DNA of 64,000 nt from Eledone cirrhosa (lineage: Eukaryota). Shown in pieces: positions 2,593-63,275 of this stretch. The stretch's first letter is position 1; every line of letters starts with the position of its first letter. The position numbers were made by a program, and so were the translations under genes. The stretch is taken from the NCBI GenBank assembly GCA_964016885.1, contig OZ024740.1:214520001-214584000 (forward strand). The letters are read 5' to 3'. The notes beneath the pieces are model-generated. The model saw only the letters and a program-made list of their open reading frames with translations, ran no database searches and was not told where the DNA came from.

Positions 2593-4533
2593 TTACCTTA
2601 CTTCTCGTAGAGGAAGGATGGTTTCTCCATCCTTTTCACTGCTTGGAGACTCCTCCGGAAGGATGTCCTTATAAATCCTCCTGGAGAGTGCTTGTCGGAA
2701 GTCTCCGATGTCTTTGGGGAATTTTTGTTTTAGTGTCGTGTGCGTTTTCTGTGTGATGCGAGTGATTTGTATGTGTGGAGGTGGTGTGAACTTTTGGGTT
2801 GTTGTATAGTCCTTTTCTGTGATGCTGTTATTGTGTTGCATGTAGTGTAATAATTGGTTGTTGTTCAAATTTAATGCTGTGTAATGTGTATCGTTTTGGT
2901 TGTTTTGTTTTGTTTGCGTTTGTTGTGGGTTTGTTTCTGTTACGCTCTTTGGTGACTTTTGTGGTGTTGGTGATGGTGGTGTTGGGGTTAATGATGGCGA
3001 TGGTGTTGGTGTTTGTGGTGATGGGGTTGGTGATGCTGGTGTGGATGGTGGCATATCTGTCCTATCTTTTTTGTTTGATAGTTTATTTGTTTCCCTCTGT
3101 ATTTTGTTTTTTGGGGGGGAGGGAAGAGAATTTTTTCTTTTTTGGTTTCTTTTTTTCTTTTTTCCTGATACCGTTTCCCACTCCTCGTCGTCACAATCTG
3201 TCTCCAGCTGTGATAGGCCGGAGAGTGGAAAGTCCTCCACAGGCGTTGGTTTTGGTTGTGGCGTGGTGGATGGCGTAGGCGCTGGTGCTAGTTCTGGCGC
3301 GTCGGATGGTGGTGGTGTTGGTTTTGCTACTGTTGCTGGGGTTGTTGCTGTTACAGTTGCTTCTGTTGTTGCTGTTACAGTTGTTGCTGCTATTTCTGCT
3401 GCTGGTGGTGATGATGGTTGAGTCACTGGGGTGGGTAAGAGAGGTGGCCTCAACCTTTTAGCCTGAGGACAGAAAGCCCTTAGGTGGGTTCCTTCACCAT
3501 AAACGACACACCTAGGCCTTCTGCCTTCGACGATTACGGTGAGGTGGCTGCCGTCAGTGAGGTCTATTACCTCTGGGATCTCCTCAATGCTTTTTTGGTC
3601 CGCTTGGATCAGGAGCTCCATCCCAGATCCGAACCATTTCTCCTGCTTTTCTTTCGCTATTTCGATTATCTTGGTGTTGGGTTCGATGCCGGCGAGGACG
3701 GCAGCTATTAGCCAGGGCATTTCGATGGCCGGTGGAACGTGGGTCACGCTGATCTTCACGAGTCTCTGGCCACAATAGCTTGGGACGAGTGTGAAGTCGT
3801 CACTTCTTAATGGGGCCATGGAGTGTTCTCTGGCCTCCTGTGGTGTTTCAAAGAACACGTCCACGGTTCCATATTTCTGCCCACGTCTGAGGTATGTTTT
3901 TTGCCCACACATGTCCCAAAGCTTTTTGGATTTGGGACTTGGATGCCCGTTCCACTCGGCGCGATTTTATGCTAATCCTTTGATAAGATACGGTGAATAG
4001 GCGCCGATGCTCCATTTTATTAGTTGGGGGGTGAGGCTGACCCTGTACCCATCTTTCTTTACCATTATTTTGGCTTCTTCTAATTCCTCCTGAGTTACCT
4101 GGAATGCTTCGCACTGTTTTGCTACTCTGGCAAAACTCAGGGTGGTTTTCTTAATTTCATTGTTGCTGTTGGTGTTATCGTTATTTTTGTTATTGTTAAT
4201 TTTAGTTTCAGTTGTGGTGGTGGTGGCGTCAGTGGTGTTCGGTGTGGAAGAGTTCATTTTGGTTGAATTCATTTTGATATCACGAGTTAATTTATTTTTT
4301 TCTTTTGTTTCTGTTGTCGCTGTGTTGGTGGTGGGGGTGGCGGCTTTAACACCTGCAGTCATTGGTAATGGCGGGAAATGAATGTCTGCCTGAGACAAAT
4401 TTAAAATATTGCTACTGCTTATATTTTTAGTGTTGGCAAACGTAGTAATATTTACAATGGTGGTGTAGGTGTGAGGTGTTAGTTTGTGAGTTTGTGAGGA
4501 AGGTGTGACACTGAGTCGTCCATGATTTTTCAA
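2593..4533 (-). pseudogene. Tx1 ORF1 (gag-like nucleic-acid-binding protein), frameshift near 3960
   Basis: ORFs 3967-4533 and 2593-3912; degenerate knuckle CVVYGEGTHLRAFC; W..V..KKKKR basic motif; SFARVAK motif matches TFAQTVK of copy 2. Confidence 0.8.
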
Positions 4534-4736: not shown

Positions 4737-8475
<3,739 letters not shown>

Positions 8476-8477
8476 TA

Positions 8478-11400
8478 ATTTGTTTATGGGTGTTCGTATA
8501 CAGCGTGGTGATAATGCCACACAAGGGCCAAGTGGGATGGCGGATCCACAGATGGCTATGTAAACATACATTCGCCAATCCTCGATAAGAGTGTTTAAAT
8601 ATCGAACATAAACAGTTCGAATAACGGTGAAATGGAGACTAGAACGTCATGTGACAGACTCTCACCCAACAGGTGCCCCCTGGCTCAGCAGCAGGAACCT
8701 GACTGTCAACCAAATACTGCTGATGTTGGAGGAAGGAGAAGAAGGAAAGGGGCCAGAACCAACTGGACGAAAGAATTGAATAGAACTGTTATGCAATGCT
8801 ACCTGAAAAGTAACCCCAAGGAGAGGGGCTACAGGAGACGGATGCATAACATCTGGAACGAGATTGGTTTATTTAAATTAGATGAACAAAAATTGGCCAG
8901 GCAGGCTCGGGTAATAAGAACTAATGGGTGGATAAGCGAGCTGGAACTGGAGGAACTGAGCAGAGAGAATGGCTTGGAGATGGCGGGTGTAGTATGCCAG
9001 ACAAGCGAGCCGGTGGGAAATGAAGGTGAGGAGGTCCTGAGAACGGAGGAACCACCCGAAGCAGACAATGATCTGAGTACTGAGATAAATAATACCTGGA
9101 ACAGAGATACGGCCACTGAGGAGATGAATGCTGACGGGCTAGGACAAGATTCGGTTGACATCCTAAATTTAGTGGTAGATGAATTGAACAATGATAGTGG
9201 GAGACCTATGAACCTAAGATTTGTAGACAGGAAAAAGTTAAAAGAAACAACAGCTAAGGTAAACAAAGTCATCCCATACCTTGAGGCGAGGAGCCTTCAC
9301 CAGTGCAACAATATCCTCAGAGCAACAGCAAATACGGTGAGGAAACTACTTGGTATAAAAGCGAGAGGAAACAACAGACAAGAAAGAGCAGAGCCGTGGT
9401 GGAAGAAGCGACTGAGTGGGCAAATCGGGGTAATGAGAAATGACATAGGAAAGCTTGAGTCACTACTGAATGGGACACTAAAAAACATAGGCACTAAAAA
9501 TAGACTGGAAATAAAATACAAAACTAGGAGTAAAAAGCTAAATATTATCATAGAGGAATTGAAGCAACGCATTGTAGCAAAGAGTGCAAAAATCAGGCGA
9601 TACGAGAACAGAGTCAGTCAGTATAAACAGAACCGCATGTTCGACAACAACCAGAAGATGCTGTTTGGACAGCTTGAGGGCAAAGAAAGAGGCAGCGACT
9701 TGATCCCTGGGGCGGAGCAAACTAAAACATTCTGGAGAGGAATATGGGAGCAGGATGTTAGACACAATGCCCAGGCAGGGTGGATTGAGACAGTACAGAG
9801 GGAGATCGGTGAGCAGGCACAGCAACAGACTGATTTGAGTATCACAGTTGAAACTCTTAAGGGGCAAGCCAAAAAACTAACCAACTGGAAATCACCAGGC
9901 CCAGATGGTGTGCAGGGGTATTGGATTAAACATCTAACATCCCTCCACCCGAAGCTGACGGCCATGTTCAATGACTGCTTGGTGTCGGGTGAGGTGCCAG
10001 AGTGGTTGACAAAAGGTACCACAGTTCTGATAATGAAAGACCGAATCAAGGGTAATGATGCTACCAACTATAGACCTATCACATGTCTGCCCGTAATGTG
10101 GAAACTGTTGACGAGCATTGTGTCTGAGGAAATCTACCATCACCTCCACACAAACAACTTGTTACCGGACGAACAGAAAGGATGCCGAAAGAAGTCACGT
10201 GGTACAAAGGACCAGTTGCTTGTTGATAGGATGGTAATGGGGAATTGCAGGAGGATGATAACATCAGACAGTTGCTAGGCAGGAGTATGGGGTCCTGGGA
10301 GACAGAGTTGACATCAACTGGAGTATCCTTGGGAAGCGTGAAGATCAAGAGAGGTATCTTCCAGGGAGATAGCCTGTCCCCTCTGTTGTTTGTCCTTGCC
10401 CTGATGCCCTTGACCATTATGCTGCGAAAAGTGAGAGCAGGATACAAGTTGGGAAGGGGAGAGCTTACCATCAATCACCTCCTCTTCATGGACGATCTTA
10501 AGCTCTTCGGGAAAAGTGAGAAGGAGTTGGATGTGCTTGTTGACACTGTCCGTATTTTCAGCAGTGATATATGTATGCAGTTTGGCATTGGTAAATGTGG
10601 AGTCATTGTGATGAAGAGGGGTAGGTTGAGCAGAAGTAACGGGATCCAGATACCAACAGGTGAGATGATAAAGGAAATTGACTCTGAGGAAGGATACAAG
10701 TATTTGGGCGTTCTGGAGGCTGATGGCATAAAGAACAAAAAAATGAAGGAATTGTTAAGAACTGAATACATTCGGAGAGTAAGGAGCGTATTGAAGTCAC
10801 ATCTGAACAGCAGAAATGCCATAAGCGCAGTAAATTCCCGAGCTGTGTCTATTATTAGGTACAGTGCGGGAATTCTGAGATGGAATGTTGCCGAACAGAA
10901 AGAAATGGATAGGAAGACTAGGAAGCTATTGACTATCTACAACATGTTCCACAAGAGGAGTGATGTCGATAGACTCTACCTAAGGAGATCTGAGGGTGGA
11001 AGAGGTCTTATCAGCATAGAGGACTGTGTTCAGATGGAGAAAAACCACCTATACAAATACGTGACCTATAGTAAGGAGCCAATGCTCAGAACTGTACTGA
11101 AGGAGGGGACAGTAGGCCAGGGGATGTCCAGGGAGGAAATAACATCAAGGAGGAAGAGCAGCCTTAAGGGAAAACCACTTCATAGTACCTTCTTTGAGAA
11201 AACTGAATTTAGAGATCCACAGACATGGAACTGGTTGAGAAGAGGAGACCTCAAAAAGGCTACAGAAGGAATGCTAATGGCTGCGCTGGAGCAGGCCCTC
11301 AAAACGAAGTGGTTGAAGCACCATATCTACAAGGAGGAGGCTAGCCCACTGTGCAGGATCTGTGGAGAGAGAGAGGAGACTGTGGCTCACATTGTGTCCG

Positions 11401-11998
11401 AGTGTAAACACCTAGCCCAGACCCACTATAAGGGCTGGAGACACGATGTGATGGGCAGGGTGATCCACTGGCACCTGTGCAAAGTAAACAATCTACCACA
11501 TTCTGAGAAATGGTATGAGCATAGGCCAGAGGCGGTGATGGAGAACAATCAGGTGAAGGTGCTGTGGGATTTTAGGATACAGACGGACAAAAAACTGGAA
11601 CACAATAGACCTGACCTGGTGGTTGTGGACAAAGAAAAAAGATCGTGCCTGATTGTTGATGTGGCCTGCCCGTTCGACACGAGAGTGCAAGAGAAGGAGA
11701 GGGAGAAAATTAACCGATACCAGGACCTAAAGTGGGAGGTGAAAAGGATTTGGAACTGCCATGAAGTCAAAGTGATCCCGATTGTCATAGGCGCACTGGG
11801 GACTATCTCCAAAAGTTTCCAGGGATGGTTAAAGAAAATCGGCCCCTTCACGCTTTTTGGAACGCTTCAAAAGGCATGCTTGCTTGGAACAGGAAGAACC
11901 CTCCGATACGTCCTGAATATCTGAGGCTGCAGGTAGTGGCTTGATATTCAATCCAACGGACTTTCCAGTTAACCAACATCAATGACTGAGATTCAAGG
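8478..11998 (+). mobile_element. R4/Dong-clade LINE copy B, tandem to copy A, same family
   Basis: ORFs 8632-10278 and 10245-11924 colinear with copy A; about 100-nt deletion in RT; (TAA)n at 8429-8472 and 12000-12057. Confidence 0.93.
8632..11924 (+). pseudogene. RT-RLE polyprotein of R4/Dong copy B, one frameshifting deletion at about 10256
   Basis: FMDD; CCHC; PD..D..K endonuclease RPDLVVVD-DVACPFD-EKINRYQDL. Confidence 0.9.
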
Positions 11999-12010
11999 AA
12001 TAACAATAAC

Positions 12011-12057
<47 letters not shown>

Positions 12058-13019: not shown

Positions 13020-16000
13020 AATTTAAAAAAAACAACAAAAAGAAAACCCCGTGACCAAGAAATACCGGGATGGCGGCCGGCGGGGAATAGCCGTGTCTCT
13101 AGGGGAGAACGACCCCTCTAGTCTTGGTTGACACTCGTTCTAGAAGTGGTAACACGAAATGATTACCCCTTGGCGGATAAGGATAAAACGCGACAAAATA
13201 AAGTAAATGTCTAATGATAAAATCTCATACCGGATCGGCCGTCACCCGGGTAAAAAAGGGCCGTGTCCCTCAGAGAGGAACCAGACTGGGGTCGAAAAAT
13301 CAGCTAATGGTTCAAACCTTCCCATCACTTCGGAGCTGGAGACCTCCCATAACCGGAATACTCCTACTGTTGGCCCTCCATGCTCACCACCAAGAAATCC
13401 AAAGAAAAAGAGAGAAAAATGGTCAAGGGAAGATAATAAAGAAGTCCTTGAGGCTTTCTACACTGCCATGTACTACCCATCAAATACATCGAATACAGAA
13501 CAGACATATATCAACTGGAAAAAGAAACATCCCGAAAACAGAGGCTATATTGACAGTAAAAAACTAGCCAATATACGAAGAAATATTGTAAGAAAAAAGT
13601 TACTAACTGATATAGAAATTTATCAGATCAAGCTATTAGCACAAAGTCAGCGAAGGGAAAATGAAACATGTGTCAGTGAAAACGAGGTAAACTGTAACAC
13701 TTCGAACCCCAGGGTTGGGGCGGAATCACTGGCAACAGAACAAATTAAAGAAAGGATCGAAAAAGTGGAGGGAGTGCATGCTCAGGATGAAACTCCAAAT
13801 GAAAATAATGAGATCGTAAATGATAAAGAAATGAATGAGAATGAACTTGCCAACTTGAAGGATGAAATTATGATCGAATGGATGAAAATGAAAGAATCTG
13901 ACATGGGGCAACGAGACACCCTCCCTAAGATCCAGAACTCCAAACAGAACCAAAAGATAATACACAAGACTAACACAATTCTCAAAAACATTATCATCAC
14001 AAACAAACTAAACATGACTGATTTAAATCATCTCTACTATGCATCGGCGAAAGTCACCACTCACTTATGTGGAGTTAAGATGAAAAAACAAAGGAATTCC
14101 CACAAGAAATCTACTTGGCAAGAGAACATCAATCGCCAAATAAACCTTCTCCGATCTGACATAGAAATTTTAACAAACTATAAAGTAGGTGAACATGTTA
14201 AACAAACTAAACTTAGTAAATTGAAGAGAAAGTACAGTATAAAATCAACAAGTGACATAGACATGCTGATAGAAATAATCAAGCAAAAAGTGTAGGCCAA
14301 AGCTGCTCGTATAAGGCGCTTTGAAAAACGATCTAGATTCTATAAGGACAATAATATGTTCAAAAACAACCAAAGAAACTTCTACAGAAAAATTGGTAAG
14401 TCAACAATAACTGCTAAATCAATACCACCCAAGGAGGAAGTGCAAGAATTCTGGGAAAAGATCTGGGCCGAAGAAAAAGTTCATAACATACATGCCCCAT
14501 GGATAGACAGACAAATGAAAGATACAGCTCACCTTGAGGAACAAATATGGGAAAATATAACAGTTGAACAGTTGCGCTTGGCTCTAAGAAAAACCGGCAA
14601 ATGAAAATCCCCAGGAAAAGACAAAATACAAAATTTTTGGATAAATGCCTTCACAGAGTCTCATGAGCTGTTAGCCCAACTTTACAATGAAATAATTAAG
14701 GAGCCAGAAAAGATACCATCATGGCTAGTTAACGGCATTACATTCCTGCTTCCGAAGAATGATGAGACAAACAATCCCAAAAATTACAGACCGATAACTT
14801 GCTTGACCACAATGTATAAAATTTTAACATCAGTCCTAACTGAATACACATATGACCACCTGATAACAAATGATCTATTTCCCATTGAGCAGAAAGGGTG
14901 TACACGAGGCTCATATGGCTGTAAGGATCACCTTTTGGTTAACAAAATGATACTGGAAGATTGTCATAATAGACACAAAAATCTATCGATTGCTTGGATA
15001 GATTATAAAAAAGCATTCGATAGTTTGCCACACAGTTGGATTGAAAAATGTTTAGAGATTTTCAAAATATCCCCCGTTGTCAGGAGGTTTTTGTCATTCA
15101 GTATGAAGACATGGAAAACGACACTCCTTTTGAATAGTGAAACAAAATCACTGGAAGCTGGAGAAGTTAATATTAATTGTGGAATTTTTCAGGGTGACTC
15201 TTTATCACCGCTTTTATTCTGCATCGCACTTATACCATTAAGTAAAATGCTCAATGAAACAAAACATGGATATAAAGTCTATGACAAAACCATTAATCAC
15301 TTGTTCTACATGGATGACCTGAAACTATTTGCAAAAAATGATGAACAATTGCAAGGGCTATTATCCACTGTGGAGCAGTTCAGTGATGACATTAAAATGG
15401 AGTTTGGACTAGATAAATGCGCCAAAGCAACGTTCACCAGAGGAAAGCTGCTGAAGAGTTCAGGCATTAATCTTGATCGGGGGAACGTGATAAGGGAACT
15501 TGATCAAGAAAAACTTACAAATATCTAGGTGTTTGTGAAGGAGACGGAATCAAGCACTCGACAATGAGGGAAAGGATAAGGAAGGAATGTTACCGCAGAG
15601 TAAGAGCAATCTTAAGAACGGAATTGAATGCAAGGAATAGGATCGATGCCATAAACACGCTTGCCATACCAATAGTAACCTACAGTTACAATGTCATCAA
15701 CTGGTCAAGCACAGAGATCCGTAGGCTCGATACAAAAATTCGAAAATTCTTAACCATGCACAGAATGCATCACCCTAAGGTAGATATAGATAGAATATAT
15801 CTCCCTAGGAAAGAAGGAGGGCGTGGGTTAATCCAGTTAGACATTGCGTTGAAAACTGAAACAATTGGATTATCTACATATCTAAGGGAATCACATGATC
15901 GGAAAATCAAACTCGTTTTGAAACACGAAAGCATCAAAAGATCATATTCCATTACAAAAGATGCACAAAGATACAGTAATGGACTACAAATTTCAGAAGT

Positions 16001-17000
16001 CCCATTTACTGCTGAAATGGAAAACACAGAAAAAGCAAAGCAGGTAAAAGTAACTGCAAAGAAAGAACTGCTACAGAAACTGGCTAAGAAATGGCAAGAA
16101 AAGCCTCTGTATGGAAAATATCCAGAGCGAGCTAACAATCCTGATGTTGACAAAACTTTAACCCATCAGTGGTTGGCATCCTCTGGACTGAAATCGGAGA
16201 CTGAAGGACTGATTATATCAGCACAAGATCAGTGTCTGCCAACAAAAAATTACCAAGCCAACATAATAAAAAATGGATGCAGCCCATTATGCCGTGTATG
16301 CAAAAAACAACCAGAGACCATTGACCATATAATTTCAATGTGCAATCCTATAGCTCCAACCGAATACCTAAACAGGCATGACAGAGCAGCACAATACATG
16401 CATTGGATAATGTGTAAGCATTTTGACCTGCCCCATCAAAAGAATTGGTGGGAGCATCAACCACCTCCCATACTTGAAAAAGATCACATCTCAATCTTGT
16501 GGAACTTTAGCATCCAAACAGACCGAAAAATAGATGCAAATAGACCTGATATAATATTGAAGGACTTTAAAAAGAGGGTATGCCTGCTAATTGATATGTC
16601 TGTTCCAATAGACAAGAATGTATCTATAAAAACATTTGAAAAATTGAGCAAGTATAAGGACCTGGAGATAGAAATTGGAAAAATGTGGAAATTGAGAACT
16701 AAAACAATACCAGTGGTTGTAGGCGCTCTGGGAATGATACCTAAGGGGTCTAATGATTACTTATCGCAAATCCCAGGAAACCCGCGTATAGGAGAAATAC
16801 AAAAGATAGTACTAATGGGAACTGCCCATATACTAAGGAAGATTCTGTCAATATAAGTACATTACATGTCTAAACACTAAAGATGCATGTGTGTGTATGT
16901 ATGTTCTTTCCTGAACATGGCGGACCTTGTTGTCTCTTGAGGTCACTGGTTGTGACTTGGTGATAACTCGTATGAACATAAAGCAAGATAAATGCAACTG
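13020..17000 (+). mobile_element. R4/Dong-clade LINE copy C, second family, near full-length
   Basis: ORF 13207-16856 with stops at 14293 and 14602 and a frameshift near 15515; YMDD, CRVC..H..C, RHD, RPDII; ends in (TAA)n 17001-17021. Confidence 0.92.
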
Positions 17001-23109: not shown

Positions 23110-23737
<628 letters not shown>

Positions 23738-32746: not shown

Positions 32747-34538
32747 ATGGATGCCATTTCCACCTCGCACACTGTTGTGAGTGCCACGCCCGCTAAGAAA
32801 AGTGGTGGAGGGAAGGTAGGAGTACAAAGCTTGCAGCCTTCCCCCCTCGCATTATCGAAAAACGTTGAAAATATTGAAACTACGAAACCAAACCCGGTAA
32901 ATAATACCAGCACCAACAACAAGAACAATGACAATAACACCACAACCAACAACTGCAACAATAGCAACACCAAGGAAAACATGAACAATATTACCAACAG
33001 TGACAGCAACAAAAAAGACAGCACCAAAACAACATTCGCACAGACTGTAAAATAAAACGAACTATACACGCCAATAGACATAACAAATGCTAAACAACTA
33101 TTACAAGACGCAAAACAATTCGTGACTTTTGGCGAAAACGGTGCTTTTAGCATCAATTCTCCACAGGAATTACGTAGAGAGGCTGTCCTGAAAACTGTGG
33201 TTTTCAGGACAATATCGAACGAAACAAGAAAACCAGCTCAATTATCACAAAATGAAATTGAGCTGGTTCTAAAAGATGCAATGAAGGACTTAACCTTCAT
33301 ACAAAAAGGTAAACTGTTTGGTAGAATTTCGGTGCTAATGAACAACCAGTCAACAGCTCAAAAGAACTCGGTATCACCCATTGTGTCCCCCCGCTTCACC
33401 TTTTTCCCCACATACAGGGGAAAAAGGACACAAAGAATAAAAATAATGAGTATCACACCAAATGTAAATATTTGGTGGATACTATGTGGAATCATTGACT
33501 TTGACGAAGACAAGATAATTTCAATAGGAAAGTCCTCCGGAGGTGTATTTGGTGGGACCAGCGTAGAAGTTCTGGTGCAAATGAGCCCAGAACGAATAGC
33601 GAATATCCCACAACGCGTGCTTCTGGACGGGCTAACTTATATAAACATTTCAGTGGAGAGAAGGCGGCCGTCATGTTACCACTGCTTAAGCAGGGGTCAC
33701 CTGAGGGCTGCCTGTCCTCAATTAACGAGTAAAAAAAAAAGGCTCTTCTGCCAACCCCGAACACAACAACACAACCACCACCACCACCACAACAACAACA
33801 ACCACAACAACACGGAAAAATAACAACACAAAACACTGTTCCACCCAACCCCTCCCCACCTAAAACAAATACAAAAGCAACCACAACAAAACCCCAAAAT
33901 ATACCCCTCCCCAACAACACGGAAGAGGACTCCGTATCAACGTCACCCAGTGACGACGAGGGAGAACCCTTTCAACAGGTGAAAAGGAAAAAAAAAGGCA
34001 CCACATTAACAAAAATGCCACAAACACACAACCACTAGCACAAACAGAACAAACATCACAAATAAAAAAAAACACCCCTCCCCAAAACATAACACATACT
34101 GCAAAACGCAAACACGCACAAGAACAACAAACAAAAACAAACACAACACAACAAAAACTCTATACATACATTAACAAGAACAATAAAACGTTGATGAAAG
34201 CGATAGAAAATAACCCTTCGGTGGAAACCGAAGGGATCACTTTCACCTACGCAGCGAACAAACCGCACCTAATGATGATTAGGGTCCCAACGGAAAATTA
34301 TGTAACTTTGAAAAAGAACCATCCAATGCATGTGGGGACCAACTGCACCAAACCACTTAACCACGTCCTATTGAGATATTTCCCCACCCCCACACCAGAC
34401 ACCCACACCCCACCAAACGCCCTAATCCCACCACACACTGATGTCCTCACCCCACCACAAACCACCACCCCACCAAACAACCCTTCCAACACCCCCATGA
34501 AAATTGTGCAGCCTGGTCCCCAGGAGACGAAGAGGTAA
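32747..34538 (+). pseudogene. Tx1 ORF1 with CCHC zinc knuckle; stop at 33053 and later frameshifts
   Basis: CYHCLSRGHLRAAC; Asn/Thr- and Pro-rich linkers as in copy 1. Confidence 0.8.
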
Positions 34539-34573
34539 GTAATTTCCTTCCTCTTCCTTTTTAACTCTTCAGC

Positions 34574-37500
34574 ACCAACAAGGCCAATATAAGAGTTGGA
34601 TGTGTGAATGCACGCGGCTTGGGGATGTCCTGTAAACAGGGCAAACTCTTAAATGACCTCAGGTCGCACAGAGTGGATGTAATGGTTATTTGCGAGTCCA
34701 GGATCAGCAGCGGCGAGCGCCAACTGGCCCCCATCTTCGACGACTTTGAGATCGACGCATCTCTCTGTCAGCCGAGGGGTGAGGGTGGGGTTGTCGTTCT
34801 GCTGCGAAAGTACCTGGGTCTTGCCACACAGAAGGTACACCTGGACCCGGAGGGTCGACTGGTGGTTTTAGACGTCGGCAGTGGTGAAGGTGGAGCTTTC
34901 AGGCTGGTGGCAGCGTATGCCCCATCTGGGACACCGCGACCGGACTTCTTCCGACGCCTGGAGAATTTCCTGGGAACGTCTCGCTCCTTCCTTTTAGTGG
35001 GGGACTGGAATGGTATCCTGGATGCACGTTGGGACTATGTAGGGGCATGTCCCGATAGAGGGGGGTGTAACAGCCTCAAACGATTAATCGGCCGATTTGA
35101 TCTGGCCGATAGATATCGACTAGATTTTCCGACTGTGCCACGGTGGACGTGGAGTAATCGCAGCGGAACATCTAGGTCGTACCTAGATAGGTTCCTAGTT
35201 AGAAATAAGGATAGGGACATATTAAGCTGTCCACGAATGTTCATGGTTGACTATTCGGATCACAAGTTGGTGACCGGAGTGGTCAACCTTGATAGAACTC
35301 ATAGACAGGGACCCGGTTACTGGAAACTAAACTTGTCTTTACCGACAAACAAAGCTTACAATAAGCGGATTAGCACACTAGTTAAGCAGCATTTGACGGG
35401 GGCAATTGTCAACAACAGGTGGTGGGGCTCTCTCAAGAGAGAAATTAGAATAGAATCGATAGGTTTTAGTCGACAATTAGCATCAGATAGGAATAGAACT
35501 GAAAGGGAATTAACAAATTGAGGAGAAGAGGCGATTAGGAGTGGCAACGTGGCCGGCGTGCTGGCGTCAAGAACGGCCCTAGACCAGTTCTTTGATGCGA
35601 AGCACGAGGGCTGCATTGTCAGGAGTAAAATACGTGCTCTGGGTAACGAGGGAGCCAAAGCTGTTAGCTGGGCCCGAGTGACAGAGGCAAAAAGTGGAAA
35701 CAAGTCCACGATTCGGTCTTTGAAGGACCAGGATGGACGCGTGATCCTTGAACCTAAGCGGATGAGTGCGGCCTTTTAACGGCGCTTTGCACAACTGTTC
35801 GGGAGGGGCGGCGGGCCGGGTGGGGCCATGGATTTCGGTCCATACCTCGACGGTCTGGCGCGGCTCTCGGAAGGGGAGGCGAAGTCCTACGAGGGGCCGA
35901 TTTCAGCCGCTGAAATAGGGGAAGCGTTGAGCCAATGCGGCAAACGCAAATCTCCGGGTCTCGATGGTCTACTATACGAACTTTATGTAGCGATGCCGGG
36001 CTTGTTCTCCGGTCTCCTGGAGGCGGTCTACTGCAACAGGCAACAGAACGGGAGAATTCCCAGTTCTGTGACCAAGGGCGTAGTCACGCTGGTGAGGAAG
36101 GACGAGAACAAGGGGGATGACATAGATAACTTCAGGCCCATAACTCTGCTAAACACAGAGTTAAAGATTTTGGCCAAGGTGTTAGCGAAGAGGTTGGCGC
36201 TTGTCGTCGGGAACCTGGTGGGAGAAGCGCAGACATGCGCAATCTCGTCCAGGTCCATACACGACAACCTCCACCTCATGCGATACATCGTAGAGAGGGT
36301 AGGGAACGAACCCGGCTTTGGTGGGGCCCTGATCAACTTGGATGAATCTAAGGCGTTCGATAGGGTTGACCATCGGTACCTGGATGCGGTGCTCGCGGCG
36401 GCAGGCTTCGGACCCGTTTTCAGGGACTGGATTGCTACAATGCACAACAGCAACACCTGCTCGAGGGTCAAGGTGAACGGCTACCTCTCGGAGCCGTTCC
36501 AAATCACGCGATCCATTCGACAGGGATGCCCTCTCTCCTCCCTCCTGTATGTGCTGGCTCTCGAGCCACTACTGCGGAAGCTGGAGCTGATGCAGGGCAT
36601 CCCCTTGGAACCGGGATTGCGGAAAGCGGTGTCGGCCTACGCCGATGACGTGACAGTAATGGTGTCGTGCGCCTCGGAAATCGGGCAGATCAGCACCTTA
36701 CTGGAGGAATATGAAAGGTTCACAGGAGCCAAGCTGAACCGGGACAAGTCCGTCGGTTTGCAACTCGGGACGTGGAGGGGCAAAACGATGCCCTCCGACG
36801 GCATCGTCGGACGCTGGACGGAGGGACCGGTGAAGCTGCTCGGGGTCTGGTTCGGACCGGACCTCCAGGTGGAGAAAAACTGGGACGAGGTAACGGGCAA
36901 GGTCTTTGCACTCGCCCAGAAGTGGGTCGAGTGCAAACTATCCCTGAAAGGTCGAACGGAGGTGGCGAACGCTTATATAGCGTCCGTCATCTACTACCGC
37001 TTGACCGTCGTGCCTTGCCCAGAGAAAACACTCGCCAAAATGAAGCGCGCGCTCTTCCGATTTCTTTGGAAGAAGCGGGCTCCTTTGGTGAGAAGATCCA
37101 TCTGCTGTCAACACCCTTCGAACGGAGGGCTGGGGATGCCGTGGCTGACGATGCGTATACACGCATTAAGGCTACGGCACCTCCAGGTATTCCTCACCGG
37201 TCAGCCGGTGTGGGCCCTGTTTGTGAGGCGAGCCTTTCCGAGACTCGTCTCACTCACCGAGCTGCAATCCTGGGTCAAGCAAAGACCGAGAAAAGTGGGC
37301 GACTGGCACATTGAATGTGCCCAGGCGCTCACGGCCCTCTGGCAAGCGGATCCAGCAATCAGTGGAGACTCAACCTCAACATTCTATAGAGGGTTGGTGC
37401 GCAGTAAGTGCAACGACGCTCTCGGAGAGGCTCTGGGCATGGAGGAAGACGAGCTGGCCAGTTTGTTCGGTAGGACGTTTGGCCCGGGACCGATGGACAA

Positions 37501-38020
37501 CTTCCAAAAGTCCCTGGCTTGGCAATGTTACCGAGGAGCTCTACCCGTTCGGGACAAGCTCTACAGACACGGGCGCCCGGGTAGGGACCCCTCGAAGAAG
37601 ATCTGTCAGAGATGCGTGCGTGACGAGGAAACCGTCGCACACGCATTCGTACACTGCCCGGGCGTTGCTGACCTGTGGGGCTATGTAGAACGACTACTGT
37701 CGCGGGTGGCACCAATCCGGTTGACCACCGAGAACATTGTCACGATCAAACCGCCTCCCCCTTTCAAAAACGAAGGAGAGGCGGTTTTCCTCTGTGTGAT
37801 AGCCATGGCGAAATAAGTTGTATGGTGGACAAGGTTGAAAGGGCTGAGGTCAGACACCTTTCTCTCCGGCCAACAACTGGTCTTTTTTTTCAAGCACCAC
37901 TTTAGAAGAAGGATCAGAATGGAGAGAGAGGTGCTCTACCCCAGCAAGTTTTATGAAAGATGGGTGAAAGTAGCGAGAATGGCCCGAGTGAATGGGCCTT
38001 CTCTCTATATCAGCCTGTAG
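34574..38020 (+). pseudogene. Tx1 ORF2 (APE-RT-zinc finger); stops at 35519, 35777, 37814
   Basis: CVNARG, VGDWN, SDH, FRPITLLN, RQGCPLS, YADD, CQRC..ET..H...C. Confidence 0.92.
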
Positions 38021-40564: not shown

Positions 40565-40696
40565 TAGTCAGTTCTTAGATATGCCAGCTCTGTGTGTATA
40601 GTGTTGGTGGTATCAGAGCCTTGGGACATATATATATATATTGGGACATATATACATATATATATATATTAGGACATATATATATATATATATATA

Positions 40697-41047
<351 letters not shown>

Positions 41048-41073: not shown

Positions 41074-42516
41074 ACAATTAAGTTAAAGATGTACATCCAT
41101 ATATGTATACTGAAATACTAGTATGTATATGAATACACACACGTATACATATGTAGATGTACCAAGTTTTTTCACTGGTCACTTTACTGTGAGTGGCCAG
41201 CTATTCTGTATGTAAACACACAGACAAACCGGTTTTTAGAGTCATACTGGTTTTTGAGGAAACACCTTTCCTCTATTCTCCAGAAAGCCAGACAAGGAAT
41301 ATTGAACTAGTTTCGTTGTTGTTACAACTCATCAGCAATATTTACCTATCTTCCGGCCTCTCTAGAGAATCGTAAAAGCACATATCGTTATATGCTTTTT
41401 CTATGAAAATTAGTAGTGGGCAGACTAATTTGCATAGAGTGTGAGTAAGTACCGGTTCAACGGAGACGATAAAAACAAAATAACGAAACGAAATTAAATT
41501 TCGTTTCGTTTGTAACTCACTTTTGTATGACTGACGCTTAAACAATTAAGTTAAAGATGTACATCCATATATGTATACTGAAATACTAGTATGTATATGA
41601 ATACACACACGTATACATATGTAGATGTACCAAGTTTTTTCTCTGGTCACTTTACTGTGAGTGGCCAGCTATTCTGTATGTAAACACACAGACAAACCGG
41701 TTTTTAGAGTCATACTGGTTTTTGAGGAAACACCTTTCCTCTATTCACCAGAAAGCCAGACAAGGAATATTGAACTAGTTTCGTTGTTGTTACAACTCAT
41801 CAGCAATATTTACCTATCTTCCGGCCTCTCTAGAGAATCGTAAAAGCACATATCGTTATATGCTTTTTCTATGAAAATTAGTAGTGGGCAGACTAATTTG
41901 CATAGAGTGTGAGTAAGTACCGGTTCAACGGAGACGATAAAAACAAATAACGAAACGAAATTAAATTTCGTTTCGTTTGTAACTCACTTTTGTATGACTG
42001 ACGCTTAAACAATTAAGTTAAAGATAATTTAATTTCGTTTCGTTATTTGTTTTTATCGTCTCCGTTGAACCGGTACTTACTCACACTCTATGCAAATTAG
42101 TCTGCCCACTACTAATTTTCATAGAAAAAGCATATAACGATATGTGCTTTTACGATTCTCTAGAGAGGCCGGAAGATAGGTAAATATTGCTGATGAGTTG
42201 TAACAACAACGAAACTAGTTCAATATTCCTTGTCTGGCTTTCTGGTGAATAGAGGAAAGGTGTTTCCTCAAAAACCAGTATGACTCTAAAAACCGGTTTG
42301 TCTGTGTGTTTACATACAGAATAGCTGGCCACTCACAGTAAAGTGACCAGTGAAAAAACTTGGTACATCTACATATGTATACGTGTGTGTATTCATATAC
42401 ATACTAGTATTTCAGTATACATATATGGATGTACATCTTTAACTTAATTGTTTAAGCGTCAGTCATACAAAAGTGAGTTACAAACGAAACGAAATTTAAT
42501 TTCGTTTCGTTATTTG

Positions 42517-42522
<6 letters not shown>
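41074..42522. mobile_element. 468-bp hammerhead-bearing unit: two tandem copies plus one inverted copy (retrozyme/PLE-like)
   Basis: Unit starts 41074, 41542, 42009; inversion at 42026; flanked by (TA)n. Confidence 0.88.
42183..42227 (+). ncRNA. Type I hammerhead ribozyme; identical copies on - strand at 41298-41342 and 41766-41810
   Basis: AATATTG CTGATGA GTTG-TAACAA-CAAC GAAA CTA GTT CAATATT; 7-bp stem I. Confidence 0.9.
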
Positions 42523-42575
<53 letters not shown>

Positions 42576-42582
<7 letters not shown>

Positions 42583-42791
42583 TAACAGATTAAAGTTTAA
42601 GCAAATAATCGCTGCTTTCACCCTTAACGGTATCCTCTGAAACTAACCCGTTAAGGGTGAAAGCAGCGATTCTTTGCTTAAACTTTAATCTGTTATTTTA
42701 ATAAATATTTGCTCTACGGTTCTTATATATTTGATATATATTTATCCTTATCGAGCCCTCTTTGGATTTTGGTCTTCAAATTTATTATTAT

Positions 42792-48765: not shown

Positions 48766-49738
48766 AAGGCGTGTGGCTGAGTGGTTAGAGAATTGGATTC
48801 ACAATCTTGAGATTGTGAGTTCGATTCCTGGACTGGTCGATGCGTTATGTCCTTGAGCAAGACACTTTATTTCACGTTGCTCCTTCTACCTGGAGTTGCC
48901 ACCTATAGATAGTATTAGCAACTGGAATGACCGACGAAAACACTATTTCCTCGGTCAGATTTGACGAAAGTCGATCGATATATATATATATATATATATA
49001 AATGAAGTATTTCCATAGGAAAGGTAAAGTAAGAGAGAGTGCTCTCTGTAGGCTATATAGCTTTTTAGTTATGTAATAAACAACATAAGATAATTACTTC
49101 GTTTACCAAAGGTTTCACGAAGTTTACCAAAGGTAGATGGCGTAGGACAGAACACAGGAGAGGCACAAAAAACAAAGAAAAGAACCCCCAGTCACTGACC
49201 TCTTGGTCACAGAATGTGTGACGAAAGAACTTTGACAATATATAAACAACCATCTGGTTGTGGAACCAACCAACCAACCGGAAATTTATAAATTCCTAAA
49301 TTTATAAATTTATTATAATAAATTGAAGTGAAATAAGCTGGTGCGTGTGTTTCTTATTGGCAACATGACCCTCCCAAAGTATAACAATATCGGTTTCAAC
49401 ACACGTTTTCAGATAAAGAATCTTGCTTAACAAATTCAGAAACGAAATATATATATATATATATACGATATTAATAAATGGAAACTATATTTATAAAACT
49501 ATATTTATTTCATTATACATATTTCAGGGATACCACATTAAACCATGGTATGCCTTCATCAGACAAAATACAATATATAACAGTTTTACAAATAGGTTTG
49601 ACGTACCCTTTAAAATACAACCATTACTTTTGGAGGCTGTCTGGATAGTGATTTGTTTATATAATAAGTCATAGTGTTAAGCACAATTATAAAAAGACGG
49701 AGAGAAAGAAAAAAGACGGAGAGAGAGAAAAGAACAAA

Positions 49739-51606
49739 GACAAAACTAACAACCTTTATGGAGTACAAAAGGACATGTATAACGACCTTATATTGAAAGA
49801 ACTAAGGAAAAAGTACAAGGTAGCAAGTAAGGATGAACTAGAAAAAATGAATACAGATGCATCTTGTATAATGCATGAATTAGACATTGAGAATAAAACA
49901 CAACCCTTCATGCCTAGGAAACCCAAGATCAATATGAAGGATCACAAAAGAAACTTTGAAAATGATTTACCAGTCAGATTAATTGCACCATCTAAATCTG
50001 ACCTGGGCAAACTTAGCAAAAATATTCTAGACAGGGTAATACAACAAATTATAAACTTACCTAATTTATCTTACTTAAAATTATGGAAAGGGACTAGTGA
50101 GGTTATTGATTGGTTTAAAGAAATTAAATATAACTGTAATAATAAGTTTATTCAGCTGAATATTGCTAACTACTATTCATCTATCACTCCTAATCTACTG
50201 AATAAGGCACTAAATTACGCATTTAAACATACTGACCTAACTAGCAATGAAATGCACATTATATTATCGGCAAGGAAAACATTGATAGAATTTAATAACC
50301 AACTCTGGACTAGGGCAGATAGAAATAATAATTTCGACATAACTATGGGATCATCAGACTCAGCTCAGGTAACGGACCTTAATTTATAATTAATTCGCTA
50401 CATAGAAAAATACCAGGTGTAACCGGAGGATTATATCGTGATGACATGCTTTTACTTATAGAAGATAATAGCTGTGAACTAAATAGAAAAAGAAAACAAA
50501 TTATACAAATTTTTAATTACCTTAATCTAAAAATAGAAATAGAGAATAACCATAGAATAGTCAATTTTCTTGATGTAACACTAAATCTCAACACATGTCT
50601 TCATTATCCATTTCACAAACTAAATGAGAACTTGAATTATGTCAACTTTAACTCTAATCACTCCAGATCTGTTAAAAATACTATAGTGAACTCTGTTCAA
50701 GAACGAATTTCAAGAATTTCATCTAATAAAAATATATTTGATGAAAAAGCGCAGTATTACAACGAAGCATTAGCTAGAGCTGGATATAGAAATAAAATTA
50801 AATACATCGATAATAATAATAAGCAAACTAACCAAAATAATAACAATTTCAATTACGGTAACAACTTTAATAACTATAATAGAAAACATTACAATAATTC
50901 CAAAAGCCGAAAAAGAAATAGAACTAGAAATATATTATGGTTTGCTCCCCCGTTCTCACTAAATATTAAAACCCCTATTGCTAAACTATTCTTTAAAGCT
51001 CTTGACACACGCTTCCCTAGAACACATAAATATCACTCAATTTTTAATAGACACACTATAAAATTAACTTACTCGTCCACCAAAAATTTAGCACAAAATA
51101 TTAATAGAATTAATAATAGGAATTTAAAACCTAACCAAAATACCAATAATAACCCAAACAATATTCAATTAAATAACTGTAACTGTAGAAATAAATCTAA
51201 CTATCCGTTAAGTAACAACTGCTTAGCTAAAAATGTAGTGTACAATTGTAATGTTAAAACTAATTTAAATTCATTTAACTATGTTGGTGCCACCTCTACA
51301 GAATTTAAATTTCGCTTCAATAATCATAAGAATTCTTTCACAGATCCAAACAAAAAATCTTCAACTTCGCTATCTAGCCTACTATGGGACCTAAATCGAG
51401 ATAATATTAAGTATTCGTTGAGTTGGAATATTATTTCATAAGCTACTCCATTTAATTCCTCTTCAGAAAATTGTGATCTTTGTATTGAAGAAATATTCTT
51501 TATATTAAAGTTCAAAAATTCCCTTAATCTGAGGAACAATTTATTCAGTTGCTGCAGACATAGATTGAACTCAACGTTTAAATATAAATATAAATTTAAA
51601 ATGTAG
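49739..51606 (+). pseudogene. PLE reverse transcriptase + GIY-YIG endonuclease
   Basis: DKTNNLY, PVRLI, ITMGS, GLYRDD, NFLDVTL; CNCR..PL..C, VVY..YVG, CDLC, LN.R, CRH; frameshift about 50390, stop 51439. Confidence 0.9.
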
Positions 51607-53171
51607 TATAATTAATTTAAGTAATTTTAGTTAATATATGGAACCTGTCGATAATCCATTAGATTCCTTCACCTTTTTCTTTTTAAACTTTCTTCCTAAA
51701 TATAAACATGGATATAATAAACTACTCTAAAATGTCTATACTTCCAATGTATTAAATAAAATATACGTAAGGTAAATTTCTATATTAAATATAAGGTTAT
51801 CTGTAGAATCATTGGGTTTTTTAAACTTTTTAAATCTTTTAAATTATTTTTATTTATTTGATTATGATAGCTTCTCATAACTTTCACAAGTCTACCCTCT
51901 CAATATCTTGATTGAGATATACGTAGGATAAATTTCTATACTAAATATATAAAACATATTATTTTAACTTAAGATACTCTATAGTGTTTTAATGATATTT
52001 AATGCTTTGATATTTCTAGATTTCTTTTGACTATATAGTTGCATTTCCAAAATATATTCCTTTGGTATTTTAAATTTGTATTGTTATGGTTATATTTACA
52101 AATTATAATCCCTTGGTAATTTAATGATATTGGATTATCTCTATACAAATGCATATGTGTGCATAGAAAGTGTTATAGATTTTTTGTGTTTGTATATGTC
52201 TGTATATATACATGAGTGTTGCATGAGGACGCACGCAAATATTTATTTATACATATGTATGTGTATATATCTATGTGTATATATCTATGGTTGAGAGGTA
52301 TGTTGCAGATGTGCATAATATTAAACACATGAATCGTAATCGTATATATGAGGACATGATTGTTAATCGTATATATTTGTATATATATACTGTGAAATTT
52401 TTATAACACAATGAGTATATAGCAGTGATTAAGAGAAATCATTTACGATTTGTATGGCTATATTGTTGACTTGAGTAAACATAATTTCTATTTTCAGGAC
52501 GTGCGTATCTATATGTATGTATATATACATATATATCTGTACGTCTTTGCATAAAATACTAATCTCTAAAACAAGGGTACATTTTGAACTCGGATTTTGG
52601 TATATTGATCTCAAGTTTCTAAACTAAACGTGTGGTCATTATTGAACAATGTTTAATTTCTCATATTATATATCTATGTCCCATTCATGAATATTGATAC
52701 TTATATTTATATTTTTATTATTCATTTCATATAAATTGTTAACTCAACTTAATATGACATGACGTAAAGTTGTCACTGCCCCCCCCCTCTCTCTATATAA
52801 TATTTCTCTCTCTTGAGTTTTTCTTTCTGTATGATGACTTGATATCTCTCTGTTGCTTTCCTTTGTTTTTCTTATTCCTTCCTTTCTTTCTTTTTTATTT
52901 CCTCCTATCTTTATCTATCTCTTTCTTTTCTCCATACATTTCTCTCTCCGATATTTCTCCAGGTTTTCTTTCTCTTTTCTTTCTCTCTCTCTGTCTTTGT
53001 TCTTTTCTCTCTCTCCGTCTTTTTTCTTTCTCTCCGTCTTTTTCTAATTGTGCTTAACACTATGACTTATTATATAAACAAATCACTATCCAGACAGCCT
53101 CCAAAAGTAATGGTTGTATTTTAAAGGGTACGTCAAACGTATTTGTAAAACTGTTATATATTGTATTTTGT

Positions 53172-53218
53172 CTGATGAAGGCATACCATGGTTTAATGTG
53201 GTATCCCTGAAATATGTA
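53172..53218 (+). ncRNA. Hammerhead in PLE pseudo-LTR; mirror at 49516-49562 (-)
   Basis: CTGATGA AGG-ATACCA/TGGTAT-CCT GAAA TAT GTA, AATAAA follows; stem I weak. Confidence 0.7.
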
Positions 53219-53356
53219 TAATGAAATAAATATGGTTTTATAAATATAGTTTCCATTTATTAATATCGTATATCTACTCCAAACATTTGTCGAGTGCTTT
53301 ATATCAGTTATAAAAATATTTACTTGTTGTATCCCAACAACTTTAAATAGAACTTT

Positions 53357-54482: not shown

Positions 54483-54625
<143 letters not shown>

Positions 54626-54745
54626 GAATAGAATGAAACGAAATTTCATTTCTCACTCTTAGTACGGCACTTACTTAAATGTAAGTATGTGTAAGTAAAG
54701 GAAAGTATATACTTTCGAACGTTCAACCATCTGGCAGAAGGGTAT

Positions 54746-54788
54746 ACGGTGCTGACGATAGCTAACAAGCTTGAAACTAGTACATCGT
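54746..54788 (+). ncRNA. Type I hammerhead in small element 54632-55020
   Basis: ACGGTG CTGACGA T AGC-TAACAA-GCT T GAAA CTA GTA CATCGT. Confidence 0.8.
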
Positions 54789-55019
54789 TCCTGTGTCAGT
54801 GTTGAACAAAAAGGTGACGTGGTTGCCTTAACACCGTACGGCATAAATCAGGCTGTCCGTTTGTTTACAAACGGACAAAGCGAGCGTTATAGTAAACGTC
54901 CGTTAAACTGATACGTACATATATATATGTGTACCTGTATGTATATATATATACATATATATATATGCATGCTACTGTACGTCTGTATACATATATGTAT
55001 GTACGTATACATACATACT

Positions 55020-55083
<64 letters not shown>

Positions 55084-60120: not shown

Positions 60121-60942
60121 GTGATCGATCTCGTTGTAGCTCCTATATAAAGAGGTATAGAAGGGAATTCGATTTCTTACAAATAGGTATAGTAGTTCAC
60201 AACTTCCAGGCTTTCAATATTCCCAAATACTTGTTTCCTTTCAAAACCCGGGGTTTACCGCATTTCCAAATGTTATCTAGTATGATATTCAGAATCTCCG
60301 TATATATTTACAGGGAAAGCGCATAGTTTAGGAGTTAACGTCGCGAGTTCGATTCCCAGGTCTGGTGGTGCGTTGTGTCCTTCATCTAGACACTCTATTT
60401 CCCGTTGCTCCAGTCAATCCAGCTGGTAAAAAGGAGTTGTACCAGTAATTTAAAAGGGGCAGCTTTGTCACAGCTTGTTTCATACTGAATCTCCTTGAAT
60501 TTCACTTGAGCAACATGGGTGGACATGATAAATACAGCATAAATATGAAAAAAAAACAATGTTTTAGGACAACGGGATTTATACACTTTCTCTCCAGAGG
60601 TGGGCGTTGTTCGAGACGATAGATAGTATATAGATCTTTTCAAATATCCGAAGACGGTTGTAAGGGACAAAACCGAACCTAGGTGCAAAGCAAAATTGAT
60701 GTGGGTCAGAGATAGTGCCAACAGCCCAAACATTTTGTGAACATTACGCTAGTTAGTTATAAGTTCTCAGCTGATTATCACTAGTTCACTGCACTTACAA
60801 TGGTAACAGTGAAAAGAGATTATCTGTATTACAAGAGCGGAAAGCAAAAGTTTTTTTATTTTATTCAATTGATCAGTCCTCACCGGTATCTAAGTATTCC
60901 GACACACACACACACACATACACACATATATATATATATATA

Positions 60943-61365
60943 TATTAATAAGAGGAATTCCAACTTTGTCTGATTTACTCGTTTTATTTACAATCCTTTA
61001 AAATTTATAATGGTATTATAATGAAATAGTATGATAGAATATTAAATTCTAAGTGTTAATTGAACAAGTACTTTCATGCTTTCGCAATCTTCAGGTTCAT
61101 AATATGTGGTGACAGTCAAGTTTGCAATTTTCAACTGTTGAATATTGTAAACTTGACTGTCACCACATATTATGAACCTGAAGATTGCGAAAGCATGAAA
61201 GTACTTGTTCAATTAACACTTAGAATTTAATATTCTATCATACTATTTCATTATAATACCATTATAAATTTTAAAGGATTGTAAATAAAACGAGTAAATC
61301 AGACAAAGTTGGAATTCCTCTTATTAATATAATCTTCTATACACAATCATACACACCCGTGTATA
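60943..61365 (+). mobile_element. Near-perfect ~185-bp-arm palindrome with a hammerhead in each arm (61173-61211 +, 61061-61099 -) plus short tail
   Basis: TGAAC CTGAAGA T TGC-GAAA-GCA T GAAA GTA CTT GTTCA. Confidence 0.85.
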
Positions 61366-61428: not shown

Positions 61429-61726
61429 TCCTGTAACTCCTGATAGAATCGTAGGGGCGCCGTAGTCACGTACAGCGTTTTCTTGGGCATTTTAAGCCTG
61501 GCGGAGCCCATCCATCTCTAGGCCTGAGCACAGCAGATCTCTTCCAGAGAGAGGAAGAATCGACCCCAGTACTAGACTGGTACTTTTTTTTATCGACCTC
61601 GAAAGGATGAAAGGCAAAGTTGACCCCGGCGGGATTTGAACTGAGAGAGTAGCGAGCCGGAACGAATACCATAAAGCATTCAATCCGTCATTCTAACGTC
61701 TCTGCCAATTCACCGCCTTATGAAAA

Positions 61727-62225
61727 AAAAATGAAACGAAATTTCATTTTATATATATATATATATAAAATGAAATCTCGTTTCATTTTCTTTTCCGTTT
61801 ATCGTTTTCGGTGCACCCGGCCGATTAACCCACTCGATATGCAAATTGGCCTACTCAGCCGTTAATATGCCTAAGGTAAGTATATACGTTCAACAATCTG
61901 GCAGGAAGGTATACGTTGCTGACGATAGCTAATAAGCTTGAAACTAGTACAGCGTTCCTTTGTCAGTGTTGAACAAACGAGCAACGATGTTTGCTAGACA
62001 CTACGGCTTAATACGGGATGTTTGTTTACAAACACACCGAGCATTATAATAAATGTTCGGTGAATCCATACGTACATATATATATCTGTGTGCATGTATG
62101 TATATATATATACATACTACTGTACGTCTGTATACAGTATATGTATGTACGTGTACATACTTATATTTAAGTAACAGCCGTACTAGGAGTGGGAAATGAA
62201 ATTTCGTTTCATTTTTTCCGTTTAT
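61727..62225 (+). mobile_element. About 426-bp hammerhead-bearing unit with terminal redundancy (hammerhead 61913-61955)
   Basis: AAATGAAAT(C/T)TCGTTTCATTTT at 61768 and 62194; same family as 54632-55020. Confidence 0.8.
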
Positions 62226-62654: not shown

Positions 62655-63275
62655 ATATATGAATGTATATATAGTGTATTTTGCAATACACTGTATGCTT
62701 AATTAAAAGCATTTCGAAGACCTTATGCTATTGTTTTAGAGTAGTGACAGTCTCACTTACTTTAAATTTCAGCAAACAGGGGAGATAAAGCTGACAGGGT
62801 CCTGTTTCGCATTTATTGATGCTTATCAAAGCCAACTACTCCTCCTGTTTGCTGAAATCATGGATGTTTGGTTCTTATAGAATTCTAGTAAATAATCAGG
62901 AATTGATTATACCGAGCGGTTGCCGGTCAAGCAGAAATTGAAAATTAAAATTGGTGCTCTGAAATAGCTATATATATATGAATGTATATATAGTGTATTT
63001 TGTAATACACTGTATGCTTAATTAAAAGCATTTCGAAGACCTTATGCTATTGTTTTAGAGTAGTGACACACTCACTTTAATTTTCAGCAAACAGGGCCCT
63101 GTCAGCTTTATCTCCCCTGTTTGCTGAAAATTAAAGTAAGTGAGTACGTCACTACTCTAAAACAATGGCATAAGGTCTTCGAAATGCTTTTAATTAAGCA
63201 TACAGTGTATTGCAAAATACAATATATATACATTCATATATATATAGCTATTTCAGAGCACCAATTCTAATTTTT
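62655..63275. mobile_element. 319-bp unit with partial tandem and inverted copy, carrying a variant hammerhead (62789-62833 -)
   Basis: GAATGTATATATAGTG at 62661 and 62980; inversion near 63095. Confidence 0.8.

Follow-up and report, generated by a model that had tools for sequence, protein, structure and literature searches.

A repeated hammerhead ribozyme family in Eledone cirrhosa, probably of the animal non-LTR retrozyme class, with a conserved octamer upstream of the ribozyme

Two diverged repeat units, each bearing a hammerhead ribozyme and the octamer ATGCAAAT, lie in the 64,000-nucleotide stretch of Eledone cirrhosa DNA analysed here (the window), raising the questions of what kind of element they represent and whether the octamer acts as its promoter. 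The animal DNA of the window abounds in microsatellites and decayed retroelements. The first-pass annotation described units of 426 and 468 nt that share the octamer and a fixed order of motifs, and took them for an old superfamily of non-coding ribozyme retroelements with an internal promoter. All of the listed motifs are found in that order in both units, and the octamer is confirmed at 61839 and 42090. The assignment to non-coding ribozyme retroelements is supported as well, but the class has already been described, as animal non-LTR retrozymes (PMC7229834), within which this is likely a new family.

The first unit, U426, is one whole 426-nt monomer on the plus strand (61768-62193, with a period running from 61768 to 62194). 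The second, U468, belongs to a tandem and inverted locus with three hammerheads, not appreciated when the two units were first paired as diverged relatives. Its plus arm (42026-42523, plus strand) holds one monomer and 30 nt and ends in (TA)n at an end point designated E2, and its minus arm (41074-42025, minus strand, 952 nt) holds 17 nt and two whole monomers, spanning from 17 nt before a second end point, E1, up to E1, followed by (TA)n. Two octamers (41903 and 41435) and two intact hammerheads are carried by the minus arm, the predicted cuts, at 41773 and 41305, being separated by 468 nt. The 468-nt unit, delimited earlier at 42026-42490, is real, but its period of 468 nt corresponds to 42026-42493. 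Besides these two, a third relative had been overlooked, U54k (54697-55024, plus strand), which ends at E1 in (TA)n, is 78% identical to U426 over 302 columns and has its hammerhead core at 54752; it lacks the octamer because this 5'-truncated copy starts downstream of the octamer region. U54k is accompanied by an inverted tail piece (54620-54696, minus strand) that starts 12-18 nt before E1 and ends at E2 in (TA)n, and U426 by a short inverted terminal-hairpin piece (61722-61749, minus strand), with a (TA) run between the piece and the monomer. The hammerhead-bearing copies of the family in the 64-kb window number five, at three loci: U426 (61768-62225), U468 and U54k (54620-55024). A separate repeat at about 61565-61720 is presumably like one found in octopus genomes.

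U426 and U468 are homologous over their full length, with a local score of 191 against 29.8 +/- 4.8 for shuffled sequences (z = 33, none of 300 shuffles reaching 191) and a global identity of 293 of 405 aligned columns. Each of the four segments of the alignment is significant separately, and the homology of the 5' segment is seen even with the octamer masked (z = 7.8). Regarding coding capacity, the units encode no protein, a reverse transcriptase (RT) and GIY-YIG frame between the repeats is absent from all three loci, and no frame of at least 100 codons with gene-like complexity, as judged by eye, was found near them.

The ribozyme of U426 is a type I hammerhead (61907-61959, plus strand) with its core at 61919 and a predicted cut after GUA at 61949, composed of a helix I with an internal loop, a helix II with a U.U at its base and a TAATAA loop, and a palindromic helix III (ACTAGT). 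Its counterpart in the U468 plus arm lies at 42178-42230, with a predicted cut after GUU at 42220. The core, the three helices and an NUH site are present in all five copies that reach the ribozyme region. These copies have in common the CTGANGA and GAAA core, a six-pair helix I, the ACTAGT palindrome as helix III, a GUA or GUU cut site, an internal loop with TAW on the 5' side and T on the 3' side followed by three further pairs, and a six-base loop 2 reading TAAYAA. The distance of 80-100 nt formerly given from octamer to hammerhead holds for the CTGANGA core (80 and 100 nt) but not for GAAACTAGT, which lies 101 and 121 nt from the octamer start. None of the eight letters of the helix II arms is identical between U426 and U468, with pairing maintained, and 19 of the 50 predicted pairs in the region from the ribozyme to the second hairpin are altered on both sides among the three subfamilies, a count taken from three sequences only.

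At the gathering score, Rfam gave no match in the whole window. U468 aligns with Hammerhead_HH9 (RF02275; E = 5.3e-8, 37.7 bits, below the gathering score of 52), and the U426 hammerhead has no hammerhead match at E<=5, a failure that the U.U at the base of helix II probably explains. The HH9 ribozyme proper occurs in single copy, in an intron of amniotes. The helix I internal loop and six-base loop 2 of this schistosome-type fold align with those of the units, whereas helix III of the units is only a palindromic hexamer. The axolotl HHR_Amex2, described as a weak self-cleaver on its own and an efficient one when dimeric (PMC7229834), likewise has a U.U at the base of helix II, and the predicted helix III palindrome of the units fits the canonical metazoan dimer-type hammerhead, in which helix III is short and palindromic and a second copy is needed (PMC4209133). 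For predicted Xenopus retrozyme dimers, cleavage in vitro is reported for one of nine (10.64898/2026.07.22.740005). Compared with the mussel hammerheads, described as being without most of the loop 1-loop 2 nucleotides, the units keep an HH9-like helix I loop and the TAAYAA loop 2.

Beyond the ribozyme, two hairpins with conserved loops, G-TTTA-C (the GTTTACA motif) and AYARTA, and covarying stems lie at 62019-62062 (plus strand), followed by the alternating purine/pyrimidine tract (62066-62166, plus strand), a predicted long hairpin that ends at E1, just before TTAAG. The TTCCTT motif is the distal arm of helix I, and TTTCGTTTC is part of the terminal hairpin, which shows one compensatory change. 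This last motif had been reported for the 426-nt unit; the first U426 copy reads TCTCGTTTC instead, and the exact form occurs in the partial second copy near 62202. As the motifs are mostly hairpin loops and arms, together with an end signal of the element, and not promoter parts, their fixed order is largely conserved RNA structure. The monomer is predicted to be highly self-paired, the circular forms having fold z-scores of -6.9 and -10.0 against 40 shuffles and their antisense strands -3.5 and -6.4. In both units the purine/pyrimidine tract (62066-62166 and 42363-42451) forms a predicted long hairpin directly upstream of E1, and the tract may be target DNA that was captured, or may pair with the (TA)n target. 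Matches to miRNA families over this tract were rejected, being far below gathering and of low complexity.

Regarding the manner of insertion, five of the six outer ends at the three loci run into (TA)n. E2 falls 12 nt past TTTCGTTTC(A/G)TT in all three subfamilies, inside a TTTATCGT motif in U426 and U468, and E1 falls directly before TTAAG in U468 and U54k. At the U468 and U54k loci, E1 terminates one arm and E2 the other, and the start of one arm lies 12-18 nt before E1. The U426 locus is an exception, both arms ending near E2 with a (TA) run at the centre, so that the rule fits two of the three loci. The tail between E1 and E2 measures 59 nt in U426 (62167-62225, plus strand), where it holds the terminal hairpin (62194-62214) and E2 runs into (TA)n, and 72 nt in U468 (42452-42523, plus strand). 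An inverted part is present at all three loci, giving a partial tandem with an inverted truncated copy, and the tail is one-sided at two of the three. Insertion into (TA)n, a partial tandem arrangement with a truncated copy in inverse orientation, and a tail on one side only are among the hallmarks described for Penelope-like elements (PMC8557442). The likeness extends to the Hydra clade of these elements, in which the inverted copy is 5'-truncated and the repeat contains a hammerhead, as in the units; however, the units have no RT or GIY-YIG frame, and their tail of 59-72 nt is longer than the 30-40 bp described (PMC8557442). Elsewhere in the window, (TA)n borders near-perfect palindromes 140-400 nt long, at 23230-23624, 40628-41020, 42570-42708, 60941-61331 and 62941-63274; these are probably inverted remnants of Penelope-type insertions, and some could be assembly fold-backs.

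The abundance of the family was approached with read data, comparing four of 24 DNA runs with 61768-62215 at 80% likeness. In run X22, 66,772 of 12,467,656 reads match (0.54%), a proportion that is not a copy number because X22 is a reduced-representation library; matching contigs number 7,959 in X1, 10 in X9 and none in X14. The family is highly repeated. Among 15 of the 44 joints listed, five go back, nine change strand and one skips, including two head-to-tail joints of U426 that go back 423-424 nt. Four of these nine opposite-strand joints have one side at 62157-62179, near E1 (p about 0.04, for a window chosen post hoc), and one of the four, whose other side is at a restriction cut, may be a library chimera. 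A frequent loose end in the reads belongs to a subfamily that combines the downstream sequence of U54k with the AATTTTCATA arm of U468, bridging both units.

These data bear on the possibility of a satellite-like DNA repeat with a fossil ribozyme, spread by processes at the DNA level such as unequal exchange or assembly fold-backs. Many short palindromes in (TA)n do occur in the window, and some of them may be assembly artefacts; however, the ribozyme and the hairpins are kept by compensatory changes across about 30% divergence, arms of unequal length end at homologous points in different subfamilies, and joints of both types, head-to-tail and opposite-strand, occur in independent DNA runs, leaving this explanation very improbable. 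The units could also be the terminal repeats (pLTRs) of autonomous Penelope-like elements, seen as 5'-truncated remnants, since the insertion geometry is identical to that of Penelope-like elements, Xenopus retrozymes and pLTRs are reported as related (10.64898/2026.07.22.740005) and a Penelope pLTR is said to contain an internal promoter (preprint of PMC8557442). We regard this as unlikely, as the unit joins itself head to tail both in the window and in the reads, coding sequence flanks none of the three loci, and the hammerhead of the units is canonical, whereas those of animal pLTRs are described as mostly minimal (PMC4209133), like that of a Penelope-like relic in the window.

That relic is a decayed element with Hydra-clade motifs (49458-53276, plus strand), whose ORF pieces (49652-50389 and 50383-51441) are broken by a frame change and a stop. 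Its 3' terminal repeat (52992-53276) has a truncated inverted copy (49458-49742) at a (TA) run, and the repeat bears a different, minimal hammerhead at 53172 (plus) and 49562 (minus). RT and C-terminal nuclease motifs are present, 323 homologues were found, one of them 35% identical to the first piece, and the WK, CxC-X5, CxxC and CxH motifs, recognized by eye, are like those of the TA-targeting Hydra clade. Pfam returned no RT or GIY-YIG match for the frame, and a PDB search likewise gave no name. The terminal repeat has no nhmmer match to the units; as the two are not homologous, the relic represents only the class of the likely helper, not the parent of the units. The repeat ends in TATCGT-AT (53265-53273), a six-letter likeness to TTTATCGT at 61798-61805 around E2, which may be chance or a shared end signal.

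The window also holds a further remnant of the relic repeat (23230-23624) and four more hammerhead-like families, at 24076 (plus), 40559 (minus), 43118 (minus) and 61178 (plus)/61094 (minus). The pair within the palindrome 60941-61331 has a different palindromic helix III, AGTACT, and another copy of the 43118 repeat, its core broken, lies at 49135-49522. Long decayed frames of non-LTR retrotransposons, with RT motifs recognized by eye, extend over 331-3966 and 33056-37816, 4785-12049, and 13207-16856; among them are two related copies on opposite strands with an endonuclease-like N-terminus, and a tandem pair and a third element with a C-terminal zinc-finger and nuclease-like region.

Judging from sequence comparison and predicted folds, the units are most probably monomers of a protein-free, highly repeated hammerhead element, likely an animal non-LTR retrozyme that Penelope-like retrotransposons probably copy. 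Non-LTR retrozymes are described as tandem units that encode no protein and bear type I hammerheads. Their expression as circles is reported from coral, mussel and axolotl, and they have been proposed to use Penelope-like RTs (PMC7229834); in addition, a 2026 preprint links retrozymes to pLTRs in vertebrates (10.64898/2026.07.22.740005). The units share with the animal non-LTR retrozymes the non-coding tandem organization, the canonical type I hammerhead, the short palindromic helix III, a strongly paired predicted circle and the co-occurrence of Penelope-like elements. As for differences, their length of 426-468 nt compares with about 170-400 nt in PMC7229834 and 51-972 nt in 10.64898/2026.07.22.740005, and the inverted arms, the fixed end points with a tail and the octamer are found here but not in the retrozyme descriptions compared from these two sources.

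For such an element, the cycle would begin with the transcription of a tandem array, either by read-through or from an internal promoter, the octamer being the candidate for the latter. Two hammerheads would then pair through the palindromic helix III and cut after GUA or GUU, freeing a monomer, whose ligation would give a highly paired circle. A Penelope-type RT with a GIY-YIG nuclease, probably of the TA-targeting Hydra kind, would nick (TA)n and be primed at E2, just past the terminal hairpin. Going round the circle would produce copies longer than one unit, and a strand switch the inverted arm, with E1 being left at one end and the tail of 59-72 nt at the other upon resolution. For copies that run across the cut site, uncut multimers are an alternative source to circles.

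The octamer is real and unchanged between the U426 and U468 subfamilies. It occurs at six sites in the window, four of them in U426/U468 copies (61839, 42090 and, on the minus strand, 41903 and 41435), the exact sequence being found in all four family copies of the 64-kb window that include the octamer region; by chance, it occurs in 2-3% of shuffled units. It lies in a hairpin, which in U426 spans 61838-61873 (plus strand), where the 5' arm TATGCAAATT holds the octamer (61839-61846) and the 3' arm (61864-61873) is a degenerate inverted octamer. The window copy of U426 forms eight of ten pairs, or nine of ten with the A at 61871 that more than 95% of reads show. In U468, the hairpin spans 42088-42124 (plus strand), with the octamer at 42090-42097 and 13 of 14 pairs. 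A 10-nt identical run is expected about one to four times at this identity, so the two units alone are no proof that the octamer is constrained. The further family members sampled neither contradict conservation of the octamer, the refuting outcome set in the first-pass annotation, nor confirm it. The single X9 contig reaching the octamer aligns from 61842 only and is read as a truncated copy, a small deletion through the octamer being the alternative.

Two readings of the octamer have to be weighed. In the one that we lean towards slightly, it serves only as the 5' arm of a hairpin in RNA or single-stranded DNA, or as a protein-binding site on the RNA, and the match to a POU site is a coincidence in an AT-rich element transcribed by read-through. 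The predicted pairing in U468 and in the majority form of U426 agrees with this reading, as do the hairpin nature of most other conserved motifs, the identical runs expected anyway, and a review according to which retrozymes seem to be promoter-free (PMC7761336). However, the octamer stem shows zero compensatory changes, with mismatches tolerated on the partner arm only, and in the window copy of U426 the first five octamer bases are predicted to be unpaired.

The other reading, more tentative, is that the octamer is a DNA promoter element, a POU/Oct site or part of an snRNA-type promoter, present in each monomer and making every new tandem copy self-transcribing; it adds to the retrozyme explanation and does not replace it. 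The 5' arm is identical between U426 and U468 at 10 of 10 positions, against 41 of 72 for twelve other stem arms (about 0.05 allowing for 14 arms), and the pair-breaking differences, two between subfamilies and one private, are all on the 3' arm, which is identical at seven of ten. However, the terminal and TTTA hairpins are almost as conserved between the two units (13 of 16 and 10 of 12 arm positions). Among 40 of the 64 variants listed, none falls at 61831-61847, and strong ones are found at 61848, 61850 and 61853; against this, any given 10-nt stretch has a chance of 0.17-0.36 of being without a variant in the same list, several other stretches of at least 17 nt are equally quiet, and the RAD reads of X22 begin at an AATT overlapping the octamer, hence being selected for AATT.

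The position of the octamer, 80-100 nt upstream of the hammerhead, also suits a promoter, as transcription of a two-unit array from a start near it would release a monomer cut at both ends. In snRNA genes, however, the octamer is described at -250 to -170 (PMC9652321), a spacing at which transcription would start downstream of the first hammerhead. An element lying 40-100 nt upstream of the start would place the start just before the ribozyme. Further against a promoter, no proximal element was identified alongside the octamer in the unit, and in the five other hammerhead families of the window the exact octamer is found within 300 nt upstream at none of eight sites, many of them truncated. 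The spacing CAC-N6-GCAAAT in the unit may resemble a vertebrate proximal sequence element. A possible TATA box, some 42 nt past the octamer, was rejected, since in U468 and U54k the block forms a hairpin or palindrome. U468 does not have the splice donor at 61875, which varies in the reads, and a bacterial promoter scan found nothing.

Promoters within hammerhead repeats are reported from other systems. The promoter of newt satellite 2 is said to include an octamer and a proximal element. Plant retrozyme LTRs are described as carrying a promoter. Newt satellite 2 also consists of tandemly repeated hammerhead units a few hundred bases long (Coats, Zhang and Epstein 1994, via PMC2220036), reported as being transcribed by Pol II from an internal snRNA-type promoter, and a schistosome satellite has a Pol III promoter (PMC2220036); the likeness of the units to the newt repeat is one of description, not of compared sequences.

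Outside the window, relatives of the units were found neither in viral contigs, searched with two patterns, nor in prokaryote genomes. None of 12 pattern-matched metagenome loci is related to the units by nhmmer, and the exact octamer lies upstream in none of the 12. Three of these loci (L002:466-718, L010:466-718 and L003:478-698) contain real-looking hammerheads with an ACTAGT helix III inside inverted repeats, which are probably Penelope-type remnants of host DNA. A one-mismatch octamer in L003 was discarded because it lies in an inverted copy of downstream sequence, and L005 was rejected as a hammerhead because it looks like bacterial coding sequence. The literature search returned no description of this family or of an octamer in retrozymes; repeat databases were outside that search, and the family may be catalogued there.

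Animal retrozymes yield very abundant circular RNAs, and what transcribes and copies them is an open question, their link with Penelope-like elements having consisted so far of co-occurrence and repeat phylogeny. The end points found here, common to subfamilies about 30% apart, read like the integration footprint of a Penelope-type enzyme, and they mark the terminal hairpin as the likely recognition signal of the RT. Regarding transcription, the family offers a candidate promoter of 8 bp, open to mutation that leaves the pairing intact. If the octamer is functionless, this would be an ordinary new family within a known class. It is conceivable, though we hold it doubtful, that these retrozymes have their own POU/Oct-dependent or snRNA-type promoter upstream of the hammerhead, with insertions that would be self-transcribing, self-cutting and mobilized by Penelope-like elements. 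In that case, the promoter design of newt satellite 2 would be general or repeatedly evolved among animal retrozymes, and such self-transcribing units would run against the view that retrozymes depend on read-through.
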